The notes under the pieces: model-generated
Database searches by the model: none
What the model was told of the DNA's origin: nothing
The model's input: only the letters and a program-made list of their open reading frames with translations
Position numbers and translations under genes: made by a program
Shown: positions 1,037-59,297 of the stretch, piece after piece
How the letters are laid out: each line of letters opens with the position of its first letter
Position numbering within the stretch: the stretch's first letter is position 1
NCBI GenBank assembly: GCA_963841935.1
Contig: CAWJEP010000001.1
Coordinates: forward strand, 74,487 to 138,486
Reading direction: 5' to 3'
Origin: an uncultured bacterium
GTDB taxonomy: Bacteria > Patescibacteriota > Minisyncoccia > Phycocordibacterales > UBA6065
DNA length: 64,000 nt

Positions 1037-1594
1037 ATGGATAATAACGCTACAAAAAAAATAAAAGAAAAATTCGACACGTTGCCAGACGATATAAAAA
1101 AAGCAATCAACGAGGCAAATCTTCCAGAGAGAGTAGAAAAAATCTCGAAGAAAAATGACCTACTTATAGACCAAACTAGTGATCTTTATATGGAAATATT
1201 TCTTGCGATGCTTGGGATTGAGCCGTTGGCCGACCTTACAAAAAACATTTCAAAAAATGTCGCTGTTTCCGCAGCAACGGCCTTAGCAATATCTAAAGAC
1301 GTAAACACGGAGATACTTCTACCGATAAGAGAATCCTTGGAGAAAATCCAACTGCCTCAGGAGGAAGATGTTACTGACGGAGAATCATCACAAATTCCCG
1401 AGCGCGACGAGATTCTCCGCGACATAGAAAATCCGCAGCCGGTAGCGGAAAGGGCGCCGATAATTGACCCGGAAAGGGAACTCGAGACAAGAGCCGCGGC
1501 GGAAACTTTCGTCGAAAGCAAAATCTCCGCTACAAAAGCACCTGCGGTGGAGAAAAAATATTCCGCCGACCCGTATCGCGAGCCGCTAAATTAA
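1037..1594 (+). CDS. hypothetical acidic protein (185 aa) in the T4SS-like cluster
   Basis: The ORF abuts the preceding and following genes by 1-2 nt, which is typical operon packing. I recognise no motif. Confidence 0.45.
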   Translation: MDNNATKKIKEKFDTLPDDIKKAINEANLPERVEKISKKNDLLIDQTSDLYMEIFLAMLGIEPLADLTKNISKNVAVSAATALAISKDVNTEILLPIRESLEKIQLPQEEDVTDGESSQIPERDEILRDIENPQPVAERAPIIDPERELETRAAAETFVESKISATKAPAVEKKYSADPYREPLN

Positions 1595-1595
1595 T

Positions 1596-2042
1596 ATGAG
1601 ATTTCAAGTACCGCAATTTATCGAGGTCGAGGACAAAATATTCGGACCGCTCACCTTCAAACAGTTCGCTTACCTCATCGGCGGCGCGGGACTTTGCTTC
1701 GTCATTTATCATTTCATCGACAACCTGTACATAAGCGTCATCTTTATGCTTCCGGTCGCCATACTCGCCGCCATGCTGGCTTTTTACAAATATAACAGTA
1801 AGCCATTCGTCGAGCTTGTGGAGTCCGCGTTCAAATATTTCTTTGGCAGTAAGCTTTACATTTGGAAAAAAGAAGAAAAGGCGCCGGTAGCGAGAAAACA
1901 GTCAGCGGCACGGACGGAAAGCGCGCCGGATTTGTTTATTCCGAAACTTTCTGACAGTAAACTAAAAGAGCTCACTTGGTCTCTGGATATTAAACAAGCG
2001 GAAAACCCCGTAACAGACACGAGCGGCGGAAGAAATGTCTGA
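1596..2042 (+). CDS. small two-TM membrane protein, VirB3-like position directly upstream of the VirB4-like ATPase
   Basis: There are two hydrophobic helices (FAYLIGGAGLCFVIYHF... and ISVIFMLPVAILAAMLAF). Size and position match VirB3/PrgI-type T4SS components. The gene ends with TGA followed 10 nt later by the next ATG. Confidence 0.4.
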   Translation: MRFQVPQFIEVEDKIFGPLTFKQFAYLIGGAGLCFVIYHFIDNLYISVIFMLPVAILAAMLAFYKYNSKPFVELVESAFKYFFGSKLYIWKKEEKAPVARKQSAARTESAPDLFIPKLSDSKLKELTWSLDIKQAENPVTDTSGGRNV

Positions 2043-2054
2043 TATAATTGCCAT

Positions 2055-4504
2055 ATGGCGACTCCCTCAAAGACAACGCAGGAATTCGTGCCGATAAAAG
2101 AGATCCGGCAGGGGGTCGTCATTCTCAAAGACGGTTCTTTGCGCTCTATTGTCATGTGTTCGTCGCTAAACTTCGCCTTGAAATCCGCCGACGAGCAGCA
2201 ATCCATAATTTTTCAATTCCAAAATTTCCTAAACTCGCTCGACTTTTCCATTCAGATTTTTATTCAATCGAGAAAACTCGATATTCGTCCGTACATCGCT
2301 CTTCTCGAGGGAAGAGAGAAGGAGCAATCCACGGACCTGATGAAAATCCAGACTCGCGAATACATAGAATTCATAAAAACATTCACGGAGTCCACGAACA
2401 TCATGACCAAGACGTTTTTTATCGTCGTGCCGTACGCCGCGCCGGTGGTCGAAGGCGGTTCCAGCGTGAAAAATATCTTTGGCAAGAAAAAAAATCAGAG
2501 CCAGACGGACGCCGAGACGGAGTTGGCTTCTTTCGAGGAACACAGGAGTCAACTCGAACAGAGAACCGGGGTCATAGACCAAGGGCTCACGCGTTGCGGC
2601 CTCCGCACCATCAATCTCGGCACGGAAGAAGTCGTCGAACTCTTCTATAAAATATTCAATCCGGGGGACACGGAAAAACCGATACCGATTTCATAAAATT
2701 ATGGCATTATTTTCAAAATTATTCGGAAAAAAAGACGACAGCGTGAAGATGGCGCCAATACTGCCCCAGGAAATATACGAGGCCGGCGTTCTCGAACTAA
2801 AAGATATCATCGCTCCGTCGGCGCTAAAGATTTCTCCGCGCGAACTTTCCCTAGGCGACAAAATCGTCAGAACTTTTTTCGTCATTTCGTATCCTCGTTT
2901 CCTTTCCGAGAGCTGGTTCGCGCCAATCATCAATCTCGACAAAGTTTTTAATGTTTCGATTTTCGTCCACCCCGTGGACACGGCGAAAGTTTTGAAACAA
3001 TTTCAGAAAAAAGTCGCCGAGGTCCAAAGTCAAATCTCCATCCGCGAACAAAAAGGTTTGGTGCGCGACCCAATGCTCGACACGGCTTATCAGGACCTCG
3101 AAAGCTTGCGCGACAGTCTGCAACAAGCACAGGAAAAATTGTTTGACGTCGGACTTTATATCACGATTTACGCTGACAGCGACCAAGAATTGGATAAAAC
3201 CGAATCGGAAATAAAATCAATCCTCGAGTCCAAGCTGGTCTACGTGAAACCGGCACTTTTCCAGCAGGAAGAAGGTTATATTTCCAACTTGCCAACGATG
3301 ACCGACGAACTGGCCGTGCATTCCAAACTTAACTCCTCGCCCCTTTCGTCGCTTTTTCCCTTCGTTTCATTCGATTTGACTTCGGACAAAGGAATCCTTT
3401 ACGGCATAAACAGACACAATTCTTCGCTCGTGCTTTTCGACAGATTTTCTCTTGGAAAACTACAACTCAATAACTTTCGCCAAATCCGGCGCGGGAAAAT
3501 CATACGCCACCAAACTTGAAATACTGCGCACGCTTATGTTTGATACCGATGTCATAGTCATCGACCCGGAAAGGGAATATGAATTTCTCTCCGAAGCGAC
3601 CGGCGGAAAATATTTCAACATTTCCCTAAATTCCGAACACCATATAAATCCTTTCGATTTGCCGATTGCGCGCGAAGACGAAAGTCCGGCCGATGTTTTG
3701 CGCTGAAACATCATAAATCTCGTCGGGCTTTTCCGCATTATGATGGGAGGACTTACTCCGGAGGAAGACGCGATTGTCGACCGAGCCATCACCGAGACTT
3801 ACGCTCTCAAAGACATCACGCCGGATTCGGATTTCAAAAATATCGAACCTCCGCTTCTCTCGGATTTCGAATTTGTTCTCGCCGGAATGGAGGGCGGAGA
3901 ATCATTAGTCCAGAGACTTTCAAAATATACCAAGGGCACATGGTCAGGATTTATAAATCGTCCGACAAACGTGGATATCGAGAGCAAGTTTATCGTCTTT
4001 TCCATCCGTGATATGGAAGACGAACTCAAGCCAGTCGCTATGTATATCGTCACGCATCATATTTGGAACGCCGTGAGAAAAAACTTGAAGAAAAGACTAA
4101 TGGTCGTCGATGAGGCATGGTGGATGATGAAATCCGAAGACACGGCGTCGTTTTTACTTTCTATAGCGAAACGCGGACGCAAATACTACCTTGGTCTAGC
4201 CACTATCACCCAAGATGTTGATGACTTCCTCAAGTCTCCATACGGCGTGCCGATTATCACCAACTCATCTATCCAGATACTTCTAAAGCAATCACCAACG
4301 TCCATAGACAAAATCCAGCAGACTTTCAACCTTACCGACGAGGAAAAGTATTTGCTTTTGGAATCTGACGTCGGCGAGGGAATATTTTTCGTGGGACTCA
4401 AGCATGTGGCCATTAAAATCATCGCCTCTTACACCGAAGACCAAATATTGACATCCGACCCGTCTCAAATATTGGCCATAAAAGAAGCCAAGAAAAATGC
4501 GTGA
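2055..4504 (+). pseudogene. virB4: VirB4/TrbE/TraC-like conjugative type IV secretion ATPase, broken into four ORF fragments (2055..2696, 2701..3519, 3452..3706, 3740..4504)
   Basis: Fragment 1 resembles Gram-positive VirB4 N-termini (VPIKEIRQGVVILKDGSLRSIVMCSSLNFALKSADEQ). Fragment 3 carries Walker A (FAKSGAGKSYAT). Fragment 4 carries Walker B (LMVVDEAWWMM) and the C-terminal region. The fragments sum to about 816 codons, matching VirB4 size. The breaks are TAA at 2694-2696 with a frame change, a +1 frame overlap at 3452-3519, and an in-frame TGA at 3704-3706. Confidence 0.6.
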
Positions 4505-4516
4505 TATAATTTTCAC

Positions 4517-5503
4517 ATGAAAACGCTCCGGTTTTTTCTCCTCTTCGTCTTTCTAGTGCCGATCTTTTCCTTCGCCCAAAGTATTCCGGGCATAGCCAAT
4601 CCAGTTTCTATCATTATGGAGCCGACTAATCCCGGACCAGGAGACACGGTGACTTTGTCAGCGCAAAGTTCTTCTTTCGATGTAAATTCCGCAACGCTTA
4701 CCTGGACGGCAAACGGTTCGGTGGTGGCAAAAGGCACCGGTCAAAAGACAATAACACTCTCCGCCGGAGGTTTGGGGAAGAAGACCGTCATCGGACTATC
4801 GGCGCAAGTGTCCGGTCTTGGAACTTTTACCGATTCGCTGACCATAAATCCGGCTTTGGTCGACTTGATTTGGGAAGCGCAAACATCCGTTCCACCTTTT
4901 TATCAAGGCAAGGCGCTTCTTGGTTGGGGAGCGACCTATAAAGTCGTTGCCGTACCGGAAGTTTACGAAAATGGCGCGGCTGTGAACCCATCGCATCTCG
5001 TCTACACGTGGAGTAAAAATTATTCCGTGGACGAAAACTCTTCCGGCTACGGAAAAAACGTCTATCAAAGCGACGGGTCGATAAATTATACCCGCGGCGG
5101 TGACGTTATAAGCGTCACCGCCGCGACCGTGGGCAGCGCGGCTACGGCCCAAGGCTCTGTCACTGTTTCTCCGGTATCTTCAGCAATGCTTATTTATCTT
5201 GAGAGTCCTATTTACGGAGTACTTTACAACCAATCACTCGCTCAAGCATCGCTATCCGGAGATTCCATCACCCTCCACGCCGAGCCGTTTTTCTTTTCCG
5301 ATATTTCTTCCGCCTTAAGCGCTCTCACGTGGACAATGAACGGCGCGGCTGTGCCGAATTTTACCGGCAATCCGTCGCTCACGCTTGTGAGGCAAGATAA
5401 AACTGCAGGTACAAGCGCTATCGTGGCTAATCTGAACAATCCTTACGCTCTACTTCAAGGCGCGCAAGAAAGCGTTACAATAAACACCAATGTTGAACAA
5501 TAA
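4517..5503 (+). CDS. secreted beta-rich protein with internal repeats (signal peptide MKTLRFFLLFVFLVPIFSFAQS)
   Basis: An N-terminal signal peptide is present. The repeated segments are TLTWTANGSVVAKGTGQKTITLSAGG and ALTWTMNGAAVPNFTGNPSLTLV. It lies inside the T4SS-like cluster, so it is possibly a surface or adhesin component. Confidence 0.55.
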   Translation: MKTLRFFLLFVFLVPIFSFAQSIPGIANPVSIIMEPTNPGPGDTVTLSAQSSSFDVNSATLTWTANGSVVAKGTGQKTITLSAGGLGKKTVIGLSAQVSGLGTFTDSLTINPALVDLIWEAQTSVPPFYQGKALLGWGATYKVVAVPEVYENGAAVNPSHLVYTWSKNYSVDENSSGYGKNVYQSDGSINYTRGGDVISVTAATVGSAATAQGSVTVSPVSSAMLIYLESPIYGVLYNQSLAQASLSGDSITLHAEPFFFSDISSALSALTWTMNGAAVPNFTGNPSLTLVRQDKTAGTSAIVANLNNPYALLQGAQESVTINTNVEQ

Positions 5504-6497
5504 ACATTTATACAAAATATTTTTTTCTGTGATGTTTTTCGCGATTTTGTCTGTGGATTTCTCTCATTTGGCTCACGCACAAAATACCTATAACTACCAA
5601 CCACTAGCAACAATTCCCTTGGGTAACGGGGGCACAAACCTCACCACTTCCGGACAAAACGTCGACCCGGCAACCTATGTTTCTGGTTTGTACACACTGG
5701 CGTTTGGCATCGCAATAATCATAGCTGTCGTTTCCGGTGTCTGGGCTGGAATCGAATGGATGCTTGGCGGAGACAACCCGTCGAAAATATCCAGTGCTAA
5801 AAATCGTCTCCAAAACGTCGGCTGGGGATTTCTCTTGCTTCTTTGTTCGTACACCATCCTCTATATAATCAACCCGCAATTAGTCACTTTTAATTTGGAC
5901 CTCGGTAGCGTAAATGCCGGCGCGCAAATATCCGCTGAAGAAGCTGAACAAAAAGCTACCCAAGCGGCTATCAACGCGCTTGCGACTACCGCAAACAACG
6001 CCGTTATACAATCTCAGTCAGATGCCGCGGCTGCTGCCACTGCGGCACAAGCGTTAGCGAGTTGTCTTGCTGCTAATAATAACAATGCAGCTAATTGTGC
6101 CACACAACAGACAGCGGCTAATCAAACACAAACAACATCCACCCAAAGCGCCGAAAAGACTACGGTAACTCAAGCGAACCTCATGGTCTCCAGCGACATC
6201 ACGCAAATCACAACTGATTTGAATAGCAATAATGGAAACGCCGTGGCAGATCTTCAAAAATTTCAAAGTGACTATAATGCGGCTCTAACAAAACTCCAAC
6301 AAGAACAAGTTGCTGCAAGTAATGCTGGAAACGTCGCCCTTGCGAACCAAATCACAAAAGATGGAATTGCTCTTGTCAGTTCAATAACTCAGAAATATGG
6401 TTGCACCCCATCACAACTTCAGGTAAGTAATCAACAACTTCAGCTGAATAATACGGCTAGTTATGGTGGAAACCAAACGATTGGTTGTAGTCAATAA
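5490..6497 (+). CDS. TrbC/VirB2-like pilin with a long Q/A/T/N-rich C-terminal extension
   Basis: It has a signal peptide followed by two hydrophobic helices separated by a short polar loop (GLYTLAFGIAIIIAVVSGVWAGIEWMLGGDNPSKISSAKNRLQNVGWGFLLLLCSYTILYII). This is the conjugative-pilin topology. After that comes about 200 aa of low-complexity Ala/Gln/Thr/Asn sequence. Confidence 0.45.
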   Translation: MLNNKHLYKIFFSVMFFAILSVDFSHLAHAQNTYNYQPLATIPLGNGGTNLTTSGQNVDPATYVSGLYTLAFGIAIIIAVVSGVWAGIEWMLGGDNPSKISSAKNRLQNVGWGFLLLLCSYTILYIINPQLVTFNLDLGSVNAGAQISAEEAEQKATQAAINALATTANNAVIQSQSDAAAAATAAQALASCLAANNNNAANCATQQTAANQTQTTSTQSAEKTTVTQANLMVSSDITQITTDLNSNNGNAVADLQKFQSDYNAALTKLQQEQVAASNAGNVALANQITKDGIALVSSITQKYGCTPSQLQVSNQQLQLNNTASYGGNQTIGCSQ

Positions 6498-6501
6498 ATT
6501 T

Positions 6502-7725
6502 ATGTCCAAAAAAAATCTAACGTGGACCGCAATAATAGTTCTCATAATTCTCGGCCTCACCGCCTGGTGGTTTTTCTCGCGTGAAAGTTCCGCCGTGCCG
6601 GCAAATCAGCCGACACAGACAAGTCAAAATCTTTTTCCTTACGGAACAAACTCTACTTCGTCGGTAAACAATACACAAACTAATCCCCAAGGGACGGTGG
6701 TTCTCGGTGGTTCGTCCGCGACTCCTCCTCCGGCGCTTATCCACATTACCACCGCGCCGGTATCAGGAATGATCTTCCTGCCGGAAACGGCAAGTTCATC
6801 GGTAACACTTAGATATATAGACAGGGCTACGGGACATATATACGACTATTCATTCGGCACCGGTACGTCCACGGAGACTACGGAGACCACCGTTCCGAAA
6901 GTCTATAACGGAATTTTTTCAAATAACGGCACTCGTGTTTTGTTACAAACATTGGGGACGAGTAATCAAATAGAGACGATAACTGGTAGTATAGCCGAAA
7001 CAAATACCGGTCCGGTGGCACTGGAAAACGTTACGTTTTTGCCGACGAACGCCGTATCCATCGCGGTGAACGGTCCGTCGCTTTTTTACCTCGTATCCGT
7101 CTCGAGTGGCTCGCTCGGATACTTGAGCGCCTTGGACGGAACTAAGCCGTCGCAAATTTTTAACTCCGCGCTAAATGAGTTTATATCAAAATGGCAGGGA
7201 ACAAATCTGACACTTCAAACAAAAGACAGTGCCTCCGTCGGCGGATATTTCTTCGACCTAAACACAAAAACCGGCGCGCTTGTCCCGATCCTAAATAATA
7301 TATCGGGATTAACAGCGCTGGAAAATCCTGCGGGAACTTTTGTTTTTGGTTCGGCTTCGAACGGGGGTGTATTGCAGTCATTCATGTATGACGAGAAATC
7401 CGGTTCGGCACGGACGATACCCCTCTCGACGCTCGCGGACAAATGCGTGTGGAGTGACACCGATCCAAACTCTCTTTACTGCGCCGTGCCGACATCATTG
7501 TCGGGAACTTTGCCGGATGACTGGTATCAAGGTAACGTCTTCTTGCCTGACAACAATATTTGGAAAATAACCGCCGACACCGGGGTGACGAACGTTGTTG
7601 ACTTTCTTTCGGAAAGAAACGCGAACATAGACGCGGAGAACCTTGTTCTAGACGGCAAGGGAACTTGGCTCGCTTTTATGAATAAAGAGGACCTCACACT
7701 ATGGGCTCTGCGGATTTCGGAATAA
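6502..7725 (+). CDS. membrane-anchored extracellular protein (N-terminal TM, Ser/Thr-rich linker, large exported domain)
   Basis: The start is taken at ATG 6502 just after the preceding stop (the listed ORF begins at 6463). The TM segment is TWTAIIVLIILGLTAWWFF. It is the last gene of the T4SS-like cluster and its 3' end overlaps yidC convergently. Confidence 0.55.
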   Translation: MSKKNLTWTAIIVLIILGLTAWWFFSRESSAVPANQPTQTSQNLFPYGTNSTSSVNNTQTNPQGTVVLGGSSATPPPALIHITTAPVSGMIFLPETASSSVTLRYIDRATGHIYDYSFGTGTSTETTETTVPKVYNGIFSNNGTRVLLQTLGTSNQIETITGSIAETNTGPVALENVTFLPTNAVSIAVNGPSLFYLVSVSSGSLGYLSALDGTKPSQIFNSALNEFISKWQGTNLTLQTKDSASVGGYFFDLNTKTGALVPILNNISGLTALENPAGTFVFGSASNGGVLQSFMYDEKSGSARTIPLSTLADKCVWSDTDPNSLYCAVPTSLSGTLPDDWYQGNVFLPDNNIWKITADTGVTNVVDFLSERNANIDAENLVLDGKGTWLAFMNKEDLTLWALRISE

Positions 7726-19710: not shown

Positions 19711-22108
19711 AAAACTTATTCTTCTCGATTCTCACGCGATTTTGCATCGCGCTTATCACGCTTTGCCTGATTTTTCCACGGCCGCCGGGGTGCCGACCGG
19801 CGCGCTTTACGGACTCTCGCTAATGCTTTTGCGGATTATCGAGGATTTCAAACCGGACTACATTGTCGCGGCTTACGATTTGCCGAAACCAACATATCGT
19901 CATGAAGCGTTTAAGGATTACAAAGCCGGTCGGGCAAAAACAGACGAAGCTTTGATTGAGCAAATAAAAAATTCCAGGAAAATTTTCGACGCATTCAATG
20001 TTCCGATTTATGACAAAGAGGGTTTTGAGGCAGATGATGTTATAGGCACAATCGTGGAAAATACGAAAAAAGACAAAAACCTAGAGGTTGTTATTGCTTC
20101 CGGCGACATGGACACGCTCCAGCTCGTAAGCGGAGAAAAAGTGGAGGTTTTTACCCTGAAGAAAGGTATTAAAGACACTATTTTATATGACGAAGGAGCC
20201 GTGAAAAAAAGGTTTAGTTTCGGTCCGGAACTTATAACGGATTACAAGGGACTGCGTGGCGACCCTTCGGATAATATTCCAGGAATCAAGGGTATTGGAG
20301 AAAAAACCGCGACAATTCTCATATCGAATTTTGGCACAATAGAAAAAATCTACTCGGAACTTAAAAAAGGTGACGAGAAATTCCTGAAAGCAAAAATCAC
20401 GCCGAGAATCATTGAGCTTTTGAGAAACGGCGAGGAAGACGCGGAATTTTCGAAAATGCTCGCTACTATCCGCCGCGACGCCCCGATAAATTTTTCCTTA
20501 CCGAAAAAAACTTTCACGGAAAATATAGATTTTAAGAAAATCGATACGCTTTTTTCGGAACTTGAGTTTAGAACGCTTGGGCCGAGGTTGAGAAATATTT
20601 TGGGTAAAACCGAGGTAGGAGTGCCCGCCGGCGAGCGCGTAGTCTTAGCAGAGTCTTCGGAGCGCACAAGCGAGCCGGCGGGCACTCCGAACGAGGTTGT
20701 AGATCAACAGAAACTCAAAGAAGCCCAAGTGATGCTTTGGCTCGTCAATTCAAATATCAGTGACCCGAAACTCGAAGATATTTTTGCCCACACGAATACG
20801 GAAAATTTTTTTGAGGCTTATGAAAAACTCTCGAAGGAAATTGCAGAGAAAAAACTTTCTTTGGTTTACGGAGAAATAGAAAAGCCACTTATTCCGATAG
20901 TGGAAAAAATGAATGCCGTTGGCGTGAAATTGGATACGGAAATTTTGAAAAAGTTATCGGTCGAATACGGCAAGGAGGCAAAAAATCTTGAAGAAAAAAT
21001 CTGGTCGGCCGCGGGCAAAGAGTTCAACATTAATTCACCAAAACAACTCGGTGAAATTCTTTTTGTCACACTTGGTTTGAAAGCCAAAAACCAAAAGAAA
21101 ACATCGGGTGGAGCTTTTTCGACGAAAGAATCTGAGCTGGAAAAATTGCGCGACGAGCACCCGATTATCGAAAACATCCTGAATTATCGGGAGTTAAAGA
21201 AACTTTTGGGCACCTACATAGAACCCATGCCGACTTTGGTAGATAAAGACTCTCGGCTTCATGCTACTTTCATTCAGACTGGCACTACCACAGGCAGAAT
21301 GTCGTCGGAAAATCCGAATTTGCAGAATATTCCTAACAAAAACGAGCTTGGACAAAATATTCGCCGAGCTTTCGTCGCCGAAAGTGGAAACGAACTCCTA
21401 TCCTTGGATTATTCACAGGTAGAATTGCGCATAGCGGCGTTTCTTTCCGGTGATAAGAAGCTTATTTCTATTTTCAAAAACGGCGAGGACGTACACACCG
21501 CCGTGGCGGCAGAAGTTTTCAGCGTGGCGCAAAAAGACGTGACGAAAGAAATGCGCCGCCGCGCCAAAGTCATCAATTTCGGCGTGATGTACGGCATGGG
21601 AGTAAACGCTCTAAGGATAAATCTCGGCACCGACCGCGCGGCGGCGCAAAAATTCCTGACGGATTATTTCGAAAAATTCTCCGGTCTCGCTTCCTATTTG
21701 GAGAAAATAAAAAAAGAAGCCGCGGAACGCGGTTACACAGAGACTTTGTTCGGCCGGCGCAGGTATTTTGAAGGTATAAAATCCAAAGTGCCATTTATTA
21801 GGGCTTCCGCAGAACGCATGGCGATAAACGCGCCGATTCAAGGAACCGAAGCGGATATTGTGAAGTTGGCGATGATAAAACTAGACGAACTTATTCGATC
21901 CGAATCGCTCGAAAACAAGGCGAGACTCATTCTCCAAGTCCACGACGAACTTGTTTACGAAATCGAAAAGGGAATAGCGCCGAAAATCATGCCGAAAATT
22001 AAAAAAATAATGGAGTCCGTCGTTCCTTTGGAAAAATCCCACGGCATTGTCTGTGTCGCCGAAGCCAAAGTCGGGGACAACTGGCAAGATATGGAGGAGT
22101 TAAAATAA
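19694..22108 (+). CDS. polA: DNA polymerase I (5'-3' exonuclease + polymerase domains)
   Basis: The 5' nuclease N-terminus is KKLILLDSHAILHRAYHAL. The polymerase motifs are RRAKVINFGVMYGMG and QVHDELVYE. The start is taken at the internal ATG 19694; the listed ORF begins at 19670. Confidence 0.9.
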   Translation: MKSFSKKLILLDSHAILHRAYHALPDFSTAAGVPTGALYGLSLMLLRIIEDFKPDYIVAAYDLPKPTYRHEAFKDYKAGRAKTDEALIEQIKNSRKIFDAFNVPIYDKEGFEADDVIGTIVENTKKDKNLEVVIASGDMDTLQLVSGEKVEVFTLKKGIKDTILYDEGAVKKRFSFGPELITDYKGLRGDPSDNIPGIKGIGEKTATILISNFGTIEKIYSELKKGDEKFLKAKITPRIIELLRNGEEDAEFSKMLATIRRDAPINFSLPKKTFTENIDFKKIDTLFSELEFRTLGPRLRNILGKTEVGVPAGERVVLAESSERTSEPAGTPNEVVDQQKLKEAQVMLWLVNSNISDPKLEDIFAHTNTENFFEAYEKLSKEIAEKKLSLVYGEIEKPLIPIVEKMNAVGVKLDTEILKKLSVEYGKEAKNLEEKIWSAAGKEFNINSPKQLGEILFVTLGLKAKNQKKTSGGAFSTKESELEKLRDEHPIIENILNYRELKKLLGTYIEPMPTLVDKDSRLHATFIQTGTTTGRMSSENPNLQNIPNKNELGQNIRRAFVAESGNELLSLDYSQVELRIAAFLSGDKKLISIFKNGEDVHTAVAAEVFSVAQKDVTKEMRRRAKVINFGVMYGMGVNALRINLGTDRAAAQKFLTDYFEKFSGLASYLEKIKKEAAERGYTETLFGRRRYFEGIKSKVPFIRASAERMAINAPIQGTEADIVKLAMIKLDELIRSESLENKARLILQVHDELVYEIEKGIAPKIMPKIKKIMESVVPLEKSHGIVCVAEAKVGDNWQDMEELK

Positions 22109-22797: not shown

Positions 22798-22870
22798 CCG
22801 CCCATAGCTCAGTCGGTAGAGCAGCTCCCTTTTAAGGAGAGGGTCGTTGGTTCGATTCCAACTGGGCGGA
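22798..22870 (+). tRNA. tRNA-Lys (anticodon UUU)
   Basis: Hand-folded cloverleaf: acceptor CCGCCCA/TGGGCGG, D-arm GCTC-AGTCGGTA-GAGC, anticodon loop CTTTTAA, T-arm GTTGG-TTCGATT-CCAAC, discriminator A. No CCA is encoded. Confidence 0.85.
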
Positions 22871-22910
22871 CAATGTCTTCGACTTTAGAAATCAAAACGG
22901 CGGATCATAT

Positions 22911-24535: not shown

Positions 24536-25786
24536 TTATTTCAAAATTTTTCTTAATTCCTCCTGTGCCACGGAGGAATCGCTCCACGGTATTTTGCTTC
24601 CGTTCGCGGTCATTATGTATGGGTCCGTGCCTTTGCCGGTGATGAGAACCGCGTCGCCGGATTTAGCCAGAGAAATGGCCTTATTTATAGCTATTCTTCT
24701 GTCCATTATGACAAGCGGCTTCGCGTCAGGAATTGCCGCCGCCATTCCCTCGACAATTTTCTGCGGGTCATCATCATAAGGGTCTTCGTTGGTGAGGATT
24801 ATTTCGTCACATTCTTTTTCGGCGATTTTCGCCATTTTGTCTCTTTTCCAAACATCGCGGCCGCCGCCGGTATTGCCGAGGACGCAGATTCGGCGGCGGC
24901 CTTTGAATGCGTCATACAAAGCCTGAAGCGATTCCGGCGTGTGGGCATAATCGACGACGACATCGAAATTTTGTCCCTCTTTTATCCGTTCCACACGACC
25001 AGGAATGTACGAAAATTTTTCCAAGGCCGCCACTATTTTCTCTTTCGGTATGCCTTGGGTTTCGGCGTATGTAACGGCGGCAAGTACATTCATCATATTG
25101 AAATCGCCGGTGAGAGGCGTCTTGTAACCTTTCGTGTCGGAAAGGGAAAAAGTCAGCTTTCCGCCGAAATTTTTGGCCAAAAATTTCGGCGTTTCTTTGT
25201 CGTCCGCGTTTCCGACGAAAATAGTTTTCGGTTTTTTCGATCTTACGACAGCGTCGGCTATGGAAAGCTTGGCCGCGACATAATTTTCATATGAGCCGTG
25301 AGCCTCGATGTGTTCTGGCGCCAAGTTTGTGAATATGAGTCCGTCAAAATCTATAAATCTGTGTCGGAAAAGTTCCGCACCTTGGCTGGTCACTTCCAAA
25401 ATCGCATAATCACATTTCGCGTCCACGGCGTGCCGCAAAAATCTTTGGACGAAAAATCTTCCGGGCATAGACATCTTATACATATTCGGTCGCGACTCAC
25501 TTCCAATTTTAAATCTGATGGTGTTTGAGACAGCGGTTTTATATCCAGCTTCCTCAAGAATCGCGTTTAAGATTTCCGTCACGGAACTTTTTCCTTTCGT
25601 CCCCGTGACGGCAATGACTTTTATATGTCGAGAAGGCCCGCCTCGACTCGACGTCTTCGGCGAGGCGGGGAAGCGATATACAACCGCCGAAAGAAAGGCC
25701 AAGGAGAAATGATACGCCGGAGCGAATGCCGAAAAAATCTTTGCCGGTATAAATTTCTTGGTCTTTTGGAGGAATGTGTCCATCAT
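24536..25786 (-). CDS. murE: Mur ligase family protein, MurE-like (UDP-MurNAc-dipeptide:diamino-acid ligase), short N-terminal domain
   Basis: The P-loop is VTGTKGKSS. DYAHTPESL and the downstream VLGNTGGGRDVWKRDKMAKIAEK..ILTNEDPYDDDP block are MurE-like; here EDPYD replaces the DNPR motif. The N-terminal region contains palindromic repeat copy 1. Confidence 0.75.
   Translation of the reverse strand: MMDTFLQKTKKFIPAKIFSAFAPAYHFSLAFLSAVVYRFPASPKTSSRGGPSRHIKVIAVTGTKGKSSVTEILNAILEEAGYKTAVSNTIRFKIGSESRPNMYKMSMPGRFFVQRFLRHAVDAKCDYAILEVTSQGAELFRHRFIDFDGLIFTNLAPEHIEAHGSYENYVAAKLSIADAVVRSKKPKTIFVGNADDKETPKFLAKNFGGKLTFSLSDTKGYKTPLTGDFNMMNVLAAVTYAETQGIPKEKIVAALEKFSYIPGRVERIKEGQNFDVVVDYAHTPESLQALYDAFKGRRRICVLGNTGGGRDVWKRDKMAKIAEKECDEIILTNEDPYDDDPQKIVEGMAAAIPDAKPLVIMDRRIAINKAISLAKSGDAVLITGKGTDPYIMTANGSKIPWSDSSVAQEELRKILK
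25637..25669. repeat. GC-rich palindromic repeat, copy 1 (cccgcctcgactcgacgtcttcggcgaggcggg), inside the murE 5' coding region
   Basis: It is a 9-bp perfect inverted repeat, CCCGCCTCG...CGAGGCGGG, with a 15-nt spacer. It shares 32 of 33 positions with copy 2 at 54440-54472. It encodes PASPKTSSRGGPS in murE. Confidence 0.8.
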
Positions 25787-27934: not shown

Positions 27935-28414
27935 ATGGGTGAGTATATTAGAAAACCAAATATCAAATGTTTTGTTTGTGGCAAATCCGTCTACAGGAGA
28001 CCAATACAAATAAAACAGAGCGACGGAAGAGCTTTTTGCAGTCAGGTTTGTTATGGAATTTATTGCAGGAAAGAGAAACCTTGTATAATATGCGGGAAGC
28101 CGATTTTGGCTGGTCTTCACAAAAAGACCTGTAGTAGAGAATGTTCGAATAAAAATAGAGCGGGGATAAAGTATGGAGCCGGTAGACCAAATGATAAGGC
28201 AAAACAATATCGAAATCTAAAAACAATATTGTTTGAAGAACGAGGCAAGAAATGCGAACGGTGCGGATTCAATAAGTTTGAAATTCTCGAGATACATCAC
28301 AAAGACAGAGATAGACGACACAATACTCTCAGAAACCTCGAACTTATTTGCCCGAATTGTCATGCCGAGGAACATTATTCAAAAAACGGCTTGTTGAGAA
28401 AAGGCGGAAAATAA
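27935..28414 (+). CDS. HNH endonuclease family protein with N-terminal Cys-rich zinc-binding modules
   Basis: The HNH core is EIHHKDRDRRHN...LICPNCH. There are several CxxC pairs upstream. The region is AT-rich and ends 3 nt before tRNA-Ser. Confidence 0.75.
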   Translation: MGEYIRKPNIKCFVCGKSVYRRPIQIKQSDGRAFCSQVCYGIYCRKEKPCIICGKPILAGLHKKTCSRECSNKNRAGIKYGAGRPNDKAKQYRNLKTILFEERGKKCERCGFNKFEILEIHHKDRDRRHNTLRNLELICPNCHAEEHYSKNGLLRKGGK

Positions 28415-29377: not shown

Positions 29378-29767
29378 ATGAGATTTCTCGGCATTGATTA
29401 CGGTTCGAAAAACATAGGTCTTTCGCTTTCCGACGAAAAAGGCGAGTGGGCTTTTCCGCATTCCGTTTTGGAAAATAATAAAAAAACTGTTGGCGAGATT
29501 TTGAAAATCGTTAAGGAAAATAATGTGAAAGATGTGGTGATAGGAGAGTCGAGAGATTTTAAAGGAAAAGCCAACGAGGTAATGGCGGCGGCGAAAGATT
29601 TGGCCAAATCTTTCGCCGCCGCCGGCCTCACTATTCATTTCGAACTGGAATATCTGACCTCGCATCAAGCTCAACATATCCAAGGCGTGAACAAGATGCT
29701 TGATGCCTCGGCCGCCACGATAATCCTCCAAAGTTTTTTGGATAAAAGGAAAAATAAAGTAGAATAA
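29378..29767 (+). CDS. ruvX: putative pre-16S rRNA nuclease / Holliday junction resolvase-like protein YqgF (RuvX)
   Basis: The N-terminus MRFLGIDYGSKNIGLSLSD and the DVVIGESRDFKGKANE block match YqgF. The ATG lies 2 nt after the tRNA-Arg 3' end. AGGAG within the tRNA acceptor strand serves as a possible SD. Confidence 0.85.
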   Translation: MRFLGIDYGSKNIGLSLSDEKGEWAFPHSVLENNKKTVGEILKIVKENNVKDVVIGESRDFKGKANEVMAAAKDLAKSFAAAGLTIHFELEYLTSHQAQHIQGVNKMLDASAATIILQSFLDKRKNKVE

Positions 29768-52997: not shown

Positions 52998-54494
52998 TTA
53001 AACTTTCGCCAGCTTTTTTACCGTTTCCTCAATCATTCCTCTAAAGCCGTGAGAGCCCAAGAACGCGATACAGCCGTTTTCGTCAGGATTTTTCGTTATT
53101 TCTTCCACGAGTTTCGCGTCATCGTCAACGTAAATGACGTTTTTGTGAGTTTTTGAAATGATTTTCGCCAGTCCGTCGCCTTCAAAAGTCTTTTGAGGAT
53201 TTTCTTCGTCAACTTTGAGTTTCGTAAGTTTGGGAATGACGACAAGGTCGGCGTTTTCGAAAGCGCCGCCGTAGGACGGCGCGGATTCTTTCGTGCGATT
53301 GCCGGTGTTTGGTTCATACACGGCGGTGATTTTGCCTTTGTAGATTTCACGCAAGTTTTTCAGTACGGATTTCACTTTTTCCGGAGAGTGAGCTATATCG
53401 TCAATGACCGTTATGCCGTGTTCATATCTTTTCTCCATACGGCGCTTCATCCCTTTGAAAGTTTTTATGGCGTCGGTGATATCTCCAGGCGCGATGCCAA
53501 TTTCTTTCGCCATGGCAAAACAACCCGTTATGTTTTCCGCGTTGTAGGCACCGAGCAGGGGGCTTTTTATTTTGTATTTTTTCCCGTGATAATCAATGTC
53601 AAACTCAATGCCGTCTTTTGATTGCCTAATATTTTCATAACGATACGTCGCGTCTTCTTTTTTGCCGTAGGTAACGGGCGAAGGAAGCGGCATTTGCGAA
53701 TTTTCAACTGTTTGAGCATTCATCTGATTTGGCGAGTTTTGAAAATTCGCAAATGCCGCCTTCCGGGCCTCTTCGTTATCTGCGCATACTACGATTTTTC
53801 CGTTTTCCGGAATCATTTTCAGAAGTTTCTCGAAAGCCGAGAAATACGACTCTTCCGTCGGATACATATCGGCGTGGTCCCAAGATACGGCGGTGAGCAG
53901 GAGGTGCGTCGGCTTGTAATGAAAAAATTTCGCTTCATTGTCCCATTTTGCCGTTTTGTATTCGTCGCCTTCGACCACGCTCCAACTCCCTGAATCAATA
54001 GCCGCCGACGGTGCACCGTCTTGCGTCAATCCGCCAATCATGTATGACGGATGCATTTTCGCGTGTTTCAAAATATGCGAAAGAAGCGCGCTCGAAGTCG
54101 TCTTGCCCCAAGTGCCGGTGCAGACGATTGAATTTTTCTTTATCAAAACTTCCCCGATGATTTCCGGAAATGATTTAAACGGAATTTTATTTTCTTGCGC
54201 GTAAACGAATTCCGGATTCGTCGAACCGATGGCGTTACCCACGACGACGAGGTCCGGCACGCCGTCAGCGATCATTTTTTCCGGATGCCAGCCGCTATAG
54301 TAGGGAATGCCGATGTTTTTCAAATGCGTCGAAACCGGCGGGAAAAATCCGGCGTCGCTTCCGGTGACTTTCCATCCTTTTTGCCAAAGCGCCGTCGCGA
54401 CGGCGCTCATAGCCACGCCGCAAATGCCTATAAAATGGACCCGCCTCGACTCGACGCCTTCGGCGAGGCGGGCTTTTTTAGTTACCGATTTCAT
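52998..54494 (-). CDS. murC: UDP-N-acetylmuramate--L-alanine ligase (MurC/Mpl-like)
   Basis: The N-terminal Rossmann region is HFIGICGVAMSAVATALWQKGWKVTGSD and the P-loop is CTGTWGKTTSSALL. The start is taken at MKSVTKK (54494); the listed ORF is longer. The N-terminal codons contain palindromic repeat copy 2. Confidence 0.85.
   Translation of the reverse strand: MKSVTKKARLAEGVESRRVHFIGICGVAMSAVATALWQKGWKVTGSDAGFFPPVSTHLKNIGIPYYSGWHPEKMIADGVPDLVVVGNAIGSTNPEFVYAQENKIPFKSFPEIIGEVLIKKNSIVCTGTWGKTTSSALLSHILKHAKMHPSYMIGGLTQDGAPSAAIDSGSWSVVEGDEYKTAKWDNEAKFFHYKPTHLLLTAVSWDHADMYPTEESYFSAFEKLLKMIPENGKIVVCADNEEARKAAFANFQNSPNQMNAQTVENSQMPLPSPVTYGKKEDATYRYENIRQSKDGIEFDIDYHGKKYKIKSPLLGAYNAENITGCFAMAKEIGIAPGDITDAIKTFKGMKRRMEKRYEHGITVIDDIAHSPEKVKSVLKNLREIYKGKITAVYEPNTGNRTKESAPSYGGAFENADLVVIPKLTKLKVDEENPQKTFEGDGLAKIISKTHKNVIYVDDDAKLVEEITKNPDENGCIAFLGSHGFRGMIEETVKKLAKV
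54440..54472. repeat. GC-rich palindromic repeat, copy 2 (cccgcctcgactcgacgccttcggcgaggcggg), followed by TTTTTT on the + strand; inside the murC N-terminal codons
   Basis: It is identical to copy 1 except for one position. It encodes ARLAEGVESRRV in murC (minus strand). Confidence 0.8.
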
Positions 54495-55180
54495 TGGAGT
54501 GTAAGTATAACCTTTAGCGGCTCGATATCTGTTCGCCACCCGCCTCGCGTTGACAAGTCTCCGCGAGTCGAGGCGGGTTTTTCGCCGTCGAACCACTCTC
54601 CTCCGCGGAATTGAAGTTTATATGTATCGCTCGAGCGTTGAAGTGAGCCGAGATAAATATATTTTTTGCCGAGTTCTTTCGCACGCTCGATGGCTATTAT
54701 CATCATGCCAAGTCCACGCGACGGTTCCCGGGGATTTTCCATATAGAATGGATAGCTATAGTGAGAAATGTTTTTTGTTTCAAAACATATCGCGTAGCCG
54801 ATAGTTTTTTTCTCCTCCGTGTAGATCAGAAATTTATTAAAGTTCGAAGCGTCTCTGTCGGTAAGCAACTCTTTTATTTTGTTTGCGGAAAAAACGGCGT
54901 TGCGTTTTTCGTAAAAATCTTTTGCGAGTTTACTGATAGACCAATCATAATTTTCGTAAGGAATTTTCGCGGTCGAAAGGGAAATATTTTCCGATTTTTT
55001 CGCCACGCGCCTGTTCTCACTCGTCATTTCGAATTTCGAAAGGTCTACTCGGAAACTTCGCGTCTTATTCATCACGCCTTTGCCCACGCGGGTGAAAACA
55101 TACCCGGCGTCATACATTTTCTCGATGTTTTCCGCCGAAAAATCGGTAATTATTTTCGTGTCCCAGTTGAGGTACGGCAT
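54491..55180 (-). CDS. aminoacyl-tRNA--protein transferase-family protein (Bpt/ATE C-terminal domain-like, GNAT fold)
   Basis: The C-terminal block GLGMMIIAIERAKELGKKYIYLGSLQRSSDTYKLQFRGGEWFDGE resembles the ATE_C/Bpt signature (...AKELGLPYVYLGYWI..S.KM.YK..F.P.E...G.W). Its 3' end contains palindrome copy 3. Confidence 0.5.
   Translation of the reverse strand: MPYLNWDTKIITDFSAENIEKMYDAGYVFTRVGKGVMNKTRSFRVDLSKFEMTSENRRVAKKSENISLSTAKIPYENYDWSISKLAKDFYEKRNAVFSANKIKELLTDRDASNFNKFLIYTEEKKTIGYAICFETKNISHYSYPFYMENPREPSRGLGMMIIAIERAKELGKKYIYLGSLQRSSDTYKLQFRGGEWFDGEKPASTRGDLSTRGGWRTDIEPLKVILTLQ
54539..54577. repeat. GC-rich palindromic repeat, copy 3 (cccgcctcgcgttgacaagtctccgcgagtcgaggcggg), followed by TTTTT; in the 3' end of the bpt-like gene, 45-85 nt upstream of the murC start
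   Basis: It has the same terminal arms CCCGCCTCG/CGAGGCGGG, extended to CCCGCCTCGACTCGCG in inverted orientation. It encodes PASTRGDLSTRGG. Confidence 0.75.
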
Positions 55181-59223: not shown

Positions 59224-59297
59224 CCGCCCTTAGCTCAGTTGGTTAGAGCATCGAGCTTATACCTCGAGGGTCCTTGGTTCGAGTCCAAGAGGGCGGA
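59224..59297 (+). tRNA. tRNA-Ile (anticodon UAU), AUA-decoding isoacceptor encoded directly with T34
   Basis: Acceptor CCGCCCT/AGGGCGG, D-arm GCTC-AGTTGGTTA-GAGC, perfect anticodon stem TCGAG/CTCGA with loop CTTATAC, variable GGGTC, T-arm CTTGG-TTCGAGT-CCAAG, discriminator A. The body resembles the tRNA-Ile(GAU) at 49831. Confidence 0.65.

Follow-up and report, generated by a model that had tools for sequence, protein, structure and literature searches.

A large part of bacterial diversity belongs to the CPR/Patescibacteria, and to our knowledge mobile DNA in them has been little reported. Yeast mitochondrial GC clusters and 'byp' elements are organellar, the byps being skipped by the ribosome, and the Rickettsia palindromic elements that Ogata is said to have described in 2000, including RPE-1, reportedly lie in frame in functional genes of reduced genomes. 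RPE-4 and RPE-6 are CGTC REPs that occur within genes (Di Nocera 2013, PMC3733652), and the Ssn proteins are single-domain GIY-YIG ssDNA nucleases flanked by cognate hairpin repeats (Chenal et al. 2025, PMC11893778); in Neisseria, Ssn/NTS gates transforming DNA. Here we set beside these systems a short hairpin repeat found in a 64-kb stretch of DNA (the window, meaning the whole stretch analysed). The repeat belongs to a family that is spread across Patescibacteria and linked to a GIY-YIG nuclease gene, both of which go beyond the initial annotation of this DNA, and its three copies in the window are very probably inserted, translated members of that dispersed, Patescibacteria-wide family. Literature searches for the family in CPR, literal sequences included, found no report of it.

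The three copies are exact CCCGCCTCG-N-CGAGGCGGG matches lying where the initial annotation had placed them, and the pattern had no match in 100 dinucleotide-preserving shuffles of the window. No half-site stands alone elsewhere in the window, and a covariance model of the hairpin family matches it exactly three times, at these same copies, with the best score (59 bits) for copy 3. All three host genes are on the minus strand:

24536-25786, minus strand: host gene 1, a Mur ligase of the MurE type that lacks the N-terminal domain (Mur_ligase_M + Mur_ligase_C)
25637-25669: copy 1, 33 bp, CCCGCCTCGACTCGACGTCTTCGGCGAGGCGGG on the plus strand, in frame in the Mur ligase gene, with the Phe45 codon on one side and a Pro codon on the other
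52998-54500, minus strand: host gene 2, a MurC/Mpl-like Mur ligase with all three Mur ligase domains, its start (ATG at 54500) chosen by orthologue comparison
54440-54472: copy 2, 33 bp, inside the GTC codon after MKSVTKK of the MurC/Mpl-like gene
54491-55180, minus strand: host gene 3, 229 aa, weakly matching the C-terminal domain of Arg-tRNA-protein transferase (ATE_C, bpt-like)
54539-54577: copy 3, 39 bp, of the main subfamily, between GEK and WRTD of the ATE_C/bpt-like gene

Copies 1 and 2 are identical at 32 of 33 positions, the sole difference being T/C at position 18, and copy 3 is inverted relative to both, its conserved asymmetric bulge (ACTCG/CGAGT) falling on the opposite strand; the alignment and the bulge bear out what had been annotated. 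The different reading frames noted at the outset were also recovered: copy 1 reads PASPKTSSRGG from the minus strand (residues 46-56), copy 2 reads ARLAEGVESRR (codons 8-18, counted from the chosen ATG) and copy 3 reads PASTRGDLSTRGG (residues 206-218 of 229). Copy 3 had been assigned to the last codons of the bpt-like gene, which needs correcting, since a conserved 10-residue C-terminal stretch (WRTDIEPLKV...) lies downstream of it. In the Mur ligase, the copy 1 peptide maps to a coil of low confidence that separates helix 14-35 from strand 55-60. All three copies are predicted to fold into hairpins, at about -22 to -24 kcal/mol as RNA and about -11 to -13 kcal/mol as ssDNA.

The comparison with orthologues had been named beforehand as the test able to overturn the reading of a dispersed REP/MITE-like element rather than conserved protein sequence. 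In alignments, the copy 1 segment is missing in 38 of the 40 closest MurE-like orthologues, the copy 2 segment in 40 of 40 MurC orthologues and the copy 3 segment in 25 of 25 bpt-like homologues, the bpt-like protein being 229 aa long in the window versus 216 aa in a relative without the insertion. The relatives' DNA is equally precise: for copy 1 there is a clean empty site in the close relative L122, with a gap of exactly 33 bp, and a decayed copy at the identical site in L121, and in L245 copies 2 and 3 correspond to exact gaps of 33 and 39 bp. At these three filled/empty pairs (L122 for copy 1; L245 for copies 2 and 3) no flanking repeat or target-site duplication was found, and the copies thus entered the chromosome as exact insertions. 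The segments in all three proteins are therefore insertions and the original reading survives; a MITE in the proper sense (terminal inverted repeats with target-site duplication, 70-300 bp) was rejected, since no duplication accompanies these pairs and the elements are too short. As far as sequence comparison can tell, copies 1-3 were probably inserted after divergence from the close relatives. In one MurE orthologue, P0003, the position of copy 1 is occupied by a segment of 10 residues, derived from a decayed copy of the same palindrome. P0003 and the window carry their copies at the same MurE nucleotide, yet in the tree each clusters with copy-less relatives, which points to recurrent gain.

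In database scans, more than 130 hairpin copies were recovered from low-GC metagenome and Patescibacteria (CPR) contigs. A generic pattern run on reference genomes matched Moranbacteria, Parcubacteria, Gottesmanbacteria and Saccharibacteria (all low-GC CPR), with conserved inner sequence; its matches in high-GC genomes are mostly chance, and those in low-GC CPR alone are informative. A more specific pattern gave at least 120 metagenome loci, with a GC content of 0.31-0.56 in all matches listed. The elements are 31-53 bp long, with invariant arms of 6-9 bp, CCCGCC(TCG)/(CGA)GGCGGG, and stable predicted hairpins, the family consensus being CCCGCCTCGACTCGCG..GTCGACGCGAGGCGGG. Two 5-nt inner modules are swapped between the arms, leaving a conserved 5-nt bulge that gives the element an orientation, and inside them come a co-varying inner stem and then a variable loop. 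Base pair 16-36 covaries (GC 51, CG 16, AU 3, UA 2), and, judging from this covariation and the predicted folds, the hairpin is selected as a structure. Viral contigs gave two matches only, both unrelated perfect palindromes in phage contigs of GC 0.57. The searches turned up no long autonomous element sharing these termini, and lone half-sites were rare and mostly degenerate or nested copies. The flanks of 132 copies show a purine at -1 and a pyrimidine at +1 and nothing further, no target-site motif or loop-target complementarity being recognised on them; 90 of the 132 have no target-site duplication whatever, and where one of 7-8 bp is seen, in a few cases, the context is one of tandem repeats. 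Some copies are nested or stand in tandem, and the density of extra copies is low, about 1 per 80 kb.

About half of the sampled copies (61 of 124) lie within long ORFs. The host genes are diverse and housekeeping, among them gyrB, atpA, secA, topA and transketolase, with Pfam matches to 129 families across 64 host ORFs; genes of DNA replication and repair (gyrB, uvrB, topA, helicases) are frequent hosts. Gene ends had been described as the element's habit, a view that we abandon, since copies occur anywhere along the length of more than 60 unrelated genes. Intragenic copies are nearly all a multiple of three nucleotides long (3n) and without stop codons: 68 of 72 copies in long ORFs have 3n length (binomial p 7.5e-28), and copies inside and outside long ORFs differ in this respect (Fisher p 1.6e-8). 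Because 68 of the 72 are 3n long, copies in long ORFs are almost certainly translated, as short hydrophilic loops. The inserts would then be Pro/Ala/Ser/Thr/Arg/Gly-rich surface loops of 11-15 residues that the host proteins tolerate.

That the segments are conserved Mur ligase protein features could be argued from the segment of P0003 at the same MurE position, and they might also be assembly artefacts, but the chance of either is negligible: the P0003 segment is a decayed palindrome in a non-sister lineage, the orthologues otherwise lack the segments, with the counts given above, different genes between them use all six reading frames of the same hairpin DNA, and the family turns up in many independent assemblies (NCBI, JGI, ENA, Logan). 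It is very unlikely, if less so, that the hairpins are RNA-level regulators or terminators for murC and its neighbours, as had also been suggested. The murC start is indeed bracketed by two stable hairpins, both terminator-like on the plus strand, and the T-runs 3' of copies 2 and 3 on that strand are real, have a terminator-like score and are antisense to the genes, as annotated; they lie outside the element, for a close relative with empty sites already has the Lys codons to which they are complementary. An intrinsic terminator was rejected for the same reasons, the T-runs being antisense only and older than the insertion. A close relative with an MraY in the same cluster at 90% identity keeps this gene arrangement although neither hairpin is there, the family occupies all positions of unrelated genes in an orientation that is random with respect to transcription (35 to 33), and Rfam holds no family matching the hairpin, all of which speaks against regulation of murC.

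In regards to a possible partner, 18 of the 124 unique sampled copies (about 15%) are linked to a GIY-YIG gene, lying 4-98 nt upstream of it. The linked nuclease has 78-89 aa, with PF01541 as the sole confident domain (PF10544, T5orf172, is also listed for 3 of 17 proteins, weak or faint at the fetched loci), and its nearest solved structures are UPF0213 proteins and SLX1. The gene is lodged beside, and ahead of, a tRNA gene, and the cassette hairpin is located in a duplicated 5' fragment of that downstream tRNA gene. In the upstream remnant it is the D-arm that the hairpin breaks, at either of two positions. Six copies had been taken as candidates for tRNA interruption; ARAGORN found no tRNA there with or without the element, the sites being duplicated 5' tRNA fragments, and a 'suppressor tRNA' call by the program was a register artefact on inspection. 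When GIY-YIG homologue loci were fetched irrespective of hairpins, 8 of 8 carried one; all of them are related to a gene with a linked hairpin, and common ancestry may therefore account for some of this pattern. In the nuclease tree the hairpin accompanies 22 of the 23 members of one clade, at 4-98 nt upstream of the gene, versus 0 of 9 in the sister paralogue clade at the same loci. Hairpins lie on both sides of the nuclease gene in L249 and L251, and copy 1 of the window is identical in sequence to the GIY-YIG-linked hairpin of L154. The linked CPR protein is 41% identical to an Azospirillum GIY-YIG protein flanked on both sides by CGTC-type hairpin dimers and 35-44% identical to YazA-type UPF0213 proteins. 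Since one CPR locus (L157) also has a canonical Ssn-like gene with CGTC-type hairpins, the linked nuclease and hairpin stand as a separate pair. Within the source genome, the search for the partner gene covered the 64-kb window, which encodes neither a GIY-YIG homologue nor a transposase.

We incline slightly towards the linked nuclease being the functional partner of the hairpin, against two other accounts of how the copies spread. They could be ordinary elements of the REP type, mobilised by a RAYT, an HUH tyrosine transposase like those of IS200/IS605, with the GIY-YIG adjacency incidental. Short GC-rich imperfect palindromes with a bulge would fit, the lack of target-site duplication and the seamless empty sites are hallmarks of single-strand 'peel and paste' elements, and intragenic REPs are known (PMC3733652). 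We nevertheless consider this improbable, since neither Y1 nor any other transposase lies in the window or between the paired copies in L145, L212, L151 and L128, the element ends in neither a GTAG nor a CGTC tag, a conserved target of 4-5 nt is missing from both flanks, and the sole recurrent neighbour of the hairpin is the GIY-YIG gene. A somewhat better, though still unlikely, account makes the GIY-YIG protein a free-standing homing endonuclease on tRNA genes and the hairpin a patch over its cleavage site or a hot spot, solo copies having spread otherwise, for example by capture at DNA breaks. Each cassette duplicates the tRNA 5' segment of its own genome and its hairpin is always in the D-arm of the remnant, these D-arm sites host both hairpin orientations and unrelated hairpins too, the linked proteins weakly match group I intron endonucleases, and the insertions come without target-site duplication and almost without target motif; the 5' fragment of the tRNA gene may be no more than a hot spot for insertions. 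Yet hairpin subtypes follow the nuclease phylogeny and the sister paralogue clade is free of hairpins, which indicates a specific partnership, and arms that stay invariant across phylum-level lineages need a conserved factor that recognises them.

If nuclease and hairpin are partners, the route by which the repeat spreads could be as follows. Copies 1-3 are very probably 'solo' copies of the 31-53-bp GC-rich hairpin family, and the nuclease would be its cognate trans-acting partner, recognising the hairpin in single-stranded DNA much as Ssn nucleases do with SRM/NTS hairpins and RAYTs with REPs. It would keep the arms uniform, and it may, by its own action or by way of host repair, cause copies to be gained and seamlessly lost. 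GIY-YIG nucleases cut DNA by hydrolysis, however, and are not known to rejoin strands, which leaves the proposed mechanism of mobility incomplete. It is tempting, if doubtful, to go further and propose a distinct two-component system of Patescibacteria, in which a GIY-YIG gene ahead of a tRNA gene and its cognate hairpin would seed and remove exact 3n insertions chromosome-wide, place short loops in essential proteins (gyrase, ATP synthase, SecA, Mur ligases) and possibly gate transforming DNA. Were that so, repeats would be mobilised by a hydrolytic nuclease without a transposase, in organisms dependent on DNA uptake.

In either case, tightly packed CPR genomes appear to be colonised by a miniature repeat that survives through being translatable, with consequences for gene calling, ortholog alignment and structure prediction of many core proteins. 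The GIY-YIG link would extend the Ssn/hairpin paradigm to hairpins of a new sequence class that lie in tRNA-linked cassettes and within genes, a genomic setting new to it, and offers candidate nuclease/hairpin pairs for ssDNA tools. It would also be interesting to pursue two questions that are now testable, namely how hairpins are gained and lost seamlessly without a transposase and whether nuclease/hairpin pairs of this sort govern DNA uptake or recombination in episymbiotic bacteria.

Compared with the known systems, the family shares with the yeast GC clusters and byps the invasion of compact lower-GC genomes, coding sequence included, by short GC-rich palindromes, but the 3n rule here indicates ordinary translation. 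Like the Rickettsia RPEs, the copies are palindromes in frame in functional genes, almost certainly translated as an extra peptide that orthologues lack; they are set apart, by description, in being 31-53 bp long versus 100-150 bp for RPE-1, in having no terminal tag, in that intragenic copies are the rule, and in arms identical across phylum-level CPR lineages. REP/REPIN-RAYT systems likewise combine imperfect, GC-rich hairpins (about 35 bp), present or absent without a scar, with a partner gene in single copy adjoining the repeats, but the putative partner here is a GIY-YIG nuclease, not an HUH tyrosine transposase; the unpaired GTAG/CGTC end tag of REPs (PMC3733652) is missing from the 132 flanks, and classical REPs are mostly extragenic and of high copy number, unlike the largely intragenic, sparse copies described above. 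The likeness to Ssn/SRM lies in a single-domain GIY-YIG gene (78-89 aa here, about 94 aa in SsnA) adjoining a dispersed, oriented hairpin repeat of 20-50 nt, enriched in symbiotic, reduced-genome bacteria. In regards to the Ssn cd10448 clade, the CPR protein is equally similar to YazA/UPF0213 and to the SRM-flanked Azospirillum homologue at the identities given above. The hairpin, however, is unrelated in sequence, with no CGTC tag and no ATTCCC stem, its consensus not fitting that of SRM, CGTCATTCCCGCG..GCGGGAATC; it usually lies only upstream of the gene, in the duplicated tRNA 5' fragment, its copy number per genome is low, and about half of its copies are intragenic, compared with 2% for NTS.

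The pattern CCCGCCTCG-N(10-35)-CGAGGCGGG matched three times in the window and in none of 100 dinucleotide-preserving shuffles, which confirms the three hairpin copies of the initial annotation. A covariance model built from the whole repeat family found these three as its sole matches in the window, and the lone 9-mer arm (zero mismatches) was absent elsewhere in it. The copies and their host genes are as follows:

25637-25669, 33 bp, copy 1: pattern match, in the MurE-type Mur ligase gene
54440-54472, 33 bp, copy 2: pattern match, in the MurC/Mpl-like ligase gene
54539-54577, 39 bp, copy 3: pattern match, in the ATE_C (bpt-like) gene
24536-25786, minus strand, host gene 1: MurE-type Mur ligase without N-terminal domain
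ATG at 54500, minus strand, host gene 2: MurC/Mpl-like ligase
54491-55180, minus strand, host gene 3: 229-aa protein with a weak ATE_C (bpt-like) match

Copies 1 and 2 differ by a single base across 33 bp, and for each of the three a stable hairpin is predicted whichever strand is folded, both as RNA and as ssDNA. They are read in their host genes as PASPKTSSRGG, ARLAEGVESRR and PASTRGDLSTRGG, respectively, and in an AlphaFold2 model the MurE insert falls in a coil of low confidence that follows the N-terminal helix and precedes the first strand of the ATP-binding domain. Homologue names put the window organism in Paceibacterota/Parcubacteria, within CPR/Patescibacteria.

Sequence comparison with orthologues and empty sites identifies all three copies as insertions. 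The MurE-like YRF|PSR junction is uninterrupted in 38 of the 40 closest orthologues, the short Lys-rich N-terminus of MurC runs directly into VHFIGICG in 40/40, and in 25/25 bpt-like homologues GxK is followed by the conserved W with no segment between. At the DNA level, the MurE site is empty in L122, from a relative that shares the 90%-identity protein cluster. L245, a Logan contig of a relative whose MraY belongs to the same 90% cluster, has exact gaps of 39 bp at the copy 3 site and 33 bp at the copy 2 site, its bpt-like gene being 216 aa long as against 229 aa in the window. Insertion was precise, and the comparison of filled and empty sites revealed no target-site duplication at any of the three window sites; the A/T runs flanking copies 2 and 3 consist of Lys codons that L245 already has at its empty sites. 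Copies recur at the same site, or at a neighbouring one, in orthologous genes, and one MurE orthologue (P0003, locus L121) carries a decayed copy at the identical nucleotide. In a neighbour-joining tree the window sequence groups with the insert-free P0001, P0002 and P0004, and P0003 with the insert-free P0006, so that the MurE site was either struck twice or precisely emptied in several lineages.

The hairpin consensus, in one orientation, is CCCGCC-TCGAC-TCGCG...GTCGA-CGCGA-GGCGGG. Its two 5-nt inner modules are exchanged between the arms and only one pairs at a time, which leaves a 5-nt bulge and so makes the hairpin polar. Structural covariation is seen at the base pair immediately inside the bulge (GC 51, CG 16, AU 3, UA 2), and pairing in shifted registers is not comparable. 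No conserved tag marks the flanks, where the element is just preceded by a purine and followed by a pyrimidine. Copies are nested in two loci (L032, L189) and form a tandem triple in L249.

Most matches to a generic pattern were chance ones in high-GC genomes, but they also included ten low-GC CPR contigs (Moranbacteria, Parcubacteria, Gottesmanbacteria, Saccharibacteria and unclassified Patescibacteria) whose elements have the inner sequence of copy 3. A more specific pattern gave at least 120 metagenome-contig loci, with a GC content of 0.31-0.56 in all matches listed and element length classes of 31-53 bp. Host genes include gyrB, atpA, secA, topA, rfbB, pth, smpB, transketolase, uvrB, helicases, radical-SAM enzymes and other Mur ligases, 64 host ORFs matching 129 Pfam families combined. 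Within long ORFs the copies are filtered for length, 68 of 72 non-redundant ones being 3n long (binomial p 7.5e-28), as against 33 that are 3n and 30 that are not outside them (Fisher p 1.6e-8). Copies are read in all six frames, and the two orientations relative to the host gene are balanced (35 vs 33). Such a pattern marks an element that acts at the DNA level and is translated when it lands in a gene; neither an RNA motif nor a spliced sequence would give it. Copy density is low, with about nine additional, mostly intact copies in 725 kb of CPR sequence. Family members in L025, L035 and L112 come from MAG contigs (GC 0.41-0.46) that carry the labels Bdellovibrionales, Phycisphaerae and Spirochaetia, which could reflect mis-binned CPR contigs or genuine spread beyond CPR. 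The orthologues lacking the segments, the empty sites and the family itself support, and considerably extend, the view that the copies are a dispersed repeat and not conserved protein; both the conserved-peptide reading and the annotation's suggestion of a murC regulator are effectively excluded.

The first pointer to a linked gene came from six copies that interrupt a tRNA D-arm-like sequence, each within a duplicated 5' fragment of its own genome's tRNA-Gln. The fragment with its hairpin is directly followed by an 81-89-aa GIY-YIG ORF and then by the intact tRNA. Eight contigs with GIY-YIG homologues, picked regardless of hairpins, all carried a hairpin of the family at this position, and a protein profile searched against the CPR loci sampled linked 18 of 124 unique copies (15%) to such a gene, next to tRNA-Gln, tRNA-Asn, tRNA-Leu or tRNA-Glu. 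The linkage is clade-specific: the hairpin lies 4-98 nt upstream in 22 of the 23 members of one clade of the GIY-YIG tree, all nine members of a paralogous clade from the same loci lack a hairpin, and hairpin subtypes are related where the nucleases are. The cassette hairpin of L154 is identical to copy 1.

Small GIY-YIG genes lie directly 5' of tRNA-Gln, -Asn, -Leu or -Glu in L183, L231, L232, L126, L152, L159, L246-L253, L140, L226, L241, L190, L195 and L210. Each is preceded by a duplicate of the tRNA's first 9-24 nt (two successive fragments in L247), and the unit itself resembles a mobile cassette that targets tRNA genes. In L142 (6880-7200) an Mfd-like gene is represented by its C-terminal part, which borders on hairpin, GIY-YIG gene and tRNA-Gln at the exact site of a solo hairpin in the intact Mfd of L240; either hairpin copies have recombined here or the assembly is chimeric at the 33-bp repeat. 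In the window, an HNH endonuclease ORF (27935-28414) ends 4 nt before a tRNA-Ser (28418), a small nuclease gene abutting a tRNA that is reminiscent of these cassettes.

The family is a compact translatable hairpin repeat common to a very large bacterial radiation, not ordinary background, and is probably paired with a miniature nuclease. The inserts would be translated as tolerated loops, and the linked nuclease may recognise the hairpin in ssDNA and act in copy gain, seamless loss and arm homogenisation. To our knowledge GIY-YIG enzymes only hydrolyse DNA, so joining would be left to host repair or recombination. The cassette could instead be a homing endonuclease, or a RAYT-type transposase could be encoded elsewhere in the genome; the 64-kb window holds neither a homologue of the linked GIY-YIG gene nor a transposase. 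That the pair forms a nuclease-driven, transposase-free repeat system, perhaps also gating DNA uptake, is a tentative and somewhat doubtful proposal.

The window has other palindromes. One in murC (53687-53759; single-copy in the window, perfect 21-nt arms, 31-nt spacer, encoding AAFANFQNSPNQMNAQTVENSQMPL) is unrelated to the main family and lies in a ~20-residue insertion common only to the closest orthologues, P0121-P0124. Another, GC-rich and imperfect, lies in the polA linker (20605-20701; 28-nt arms, 82% complementary, core GGAGTGCCCGCCGGCGAGC, translated as GKTEVGVPAGERVVLAESSERTSEPAGTPNEVV); it has the CCCGCC/GGCGGG core in common with the family, but a 47-nt interior and a weak covariance-model score (11 bits). 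Other palindromes, perfect or nearly so and 30-42 nt long, at 60630-60661, 59379-59420, 25162-25191 and 29584-29623, are far more numerous than chance predicts for perfect palindromes this long: two in a large putative helicase-like ORF with a GSGKT P-loop (one encoding AAATAYAVAAA), one in the Mur ligase gene, encoding the conserved TPKFLAKNFGG, and a perfect 40-nt one in the tRNA gene cluster region (~29-31 kb). A tRNA-Ile(UAU) lies at 59224-59298. The 'tRNA-Stop (anticodon tta)' called by ARAGORN at 22798-22871 (anticodon loop CUUUUAA) looks like an off-by-one artefact and not a suppressor, the standard register giving an ordinary tRNA-Lys(UUU). A type IV secretion-like cluster (1037-7725; PrgI family, T4SS pilin) has its VirB4/TraC/TraG-type ATPase signal across two of three consecutive ORFs (2701-3519, 3740-4504), as if the gene were frameshifted or broken up; the first of the three (2055-2696) gives no Pfam match.

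In regards to known systems, the literature consulted, searched also with the DNA and peptide sequences themselves, gave no account of the CCCGCC/GGCGGG family. Di Nocera et al. class REPs by the terminal tags GTAG or CGTC and report intragenic ones, among them RPE-4/-6 of Rickettsia, frequently in genes for replication and repair (PMC3733652). Chenal et al. describe Ssn (cd10448), a single-domain GIY-YIG of ~94 aa encoded between CGTC-type hairpin repeats (SRM/NTS), which are seldom intragenic and which Ssn proteins bind as ssDNA only and cut beside (PMC11893778). The CPR protein gives weak matches to UPF0213 structures and SLX1, and is 41% identical to an Azospirillum GIY-YIG and similarly close to YazA-type proteins; the Azospirillum gene, with CGTCATCCCCGCGAAGGCGGGGATCCAG dimers on both sides, is a textbook Ssn arrangement. 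Also, L157 (~1090-1400) has a longer GIY-YIG with a ...KKWKREWK...NPNW C-terminus, by eye resembling the Azospirillum protein, flanked by ATTCCC..GGGAAT hairpins of canonical SRM/CGTC type, so that classical Ssn-like pairs may coexist with the CCCGCC family in Patescibacteria. Since the CPR hairpin falls outside the SRM definition and both the GTAG and CGTC definitions of REPs, and the MITE criteria fail for it, we file the hairpin and its nuclease by analogy, as a pair that may work like Ssn/SRM or REP/RAYT and not as a demonstrated member of either.
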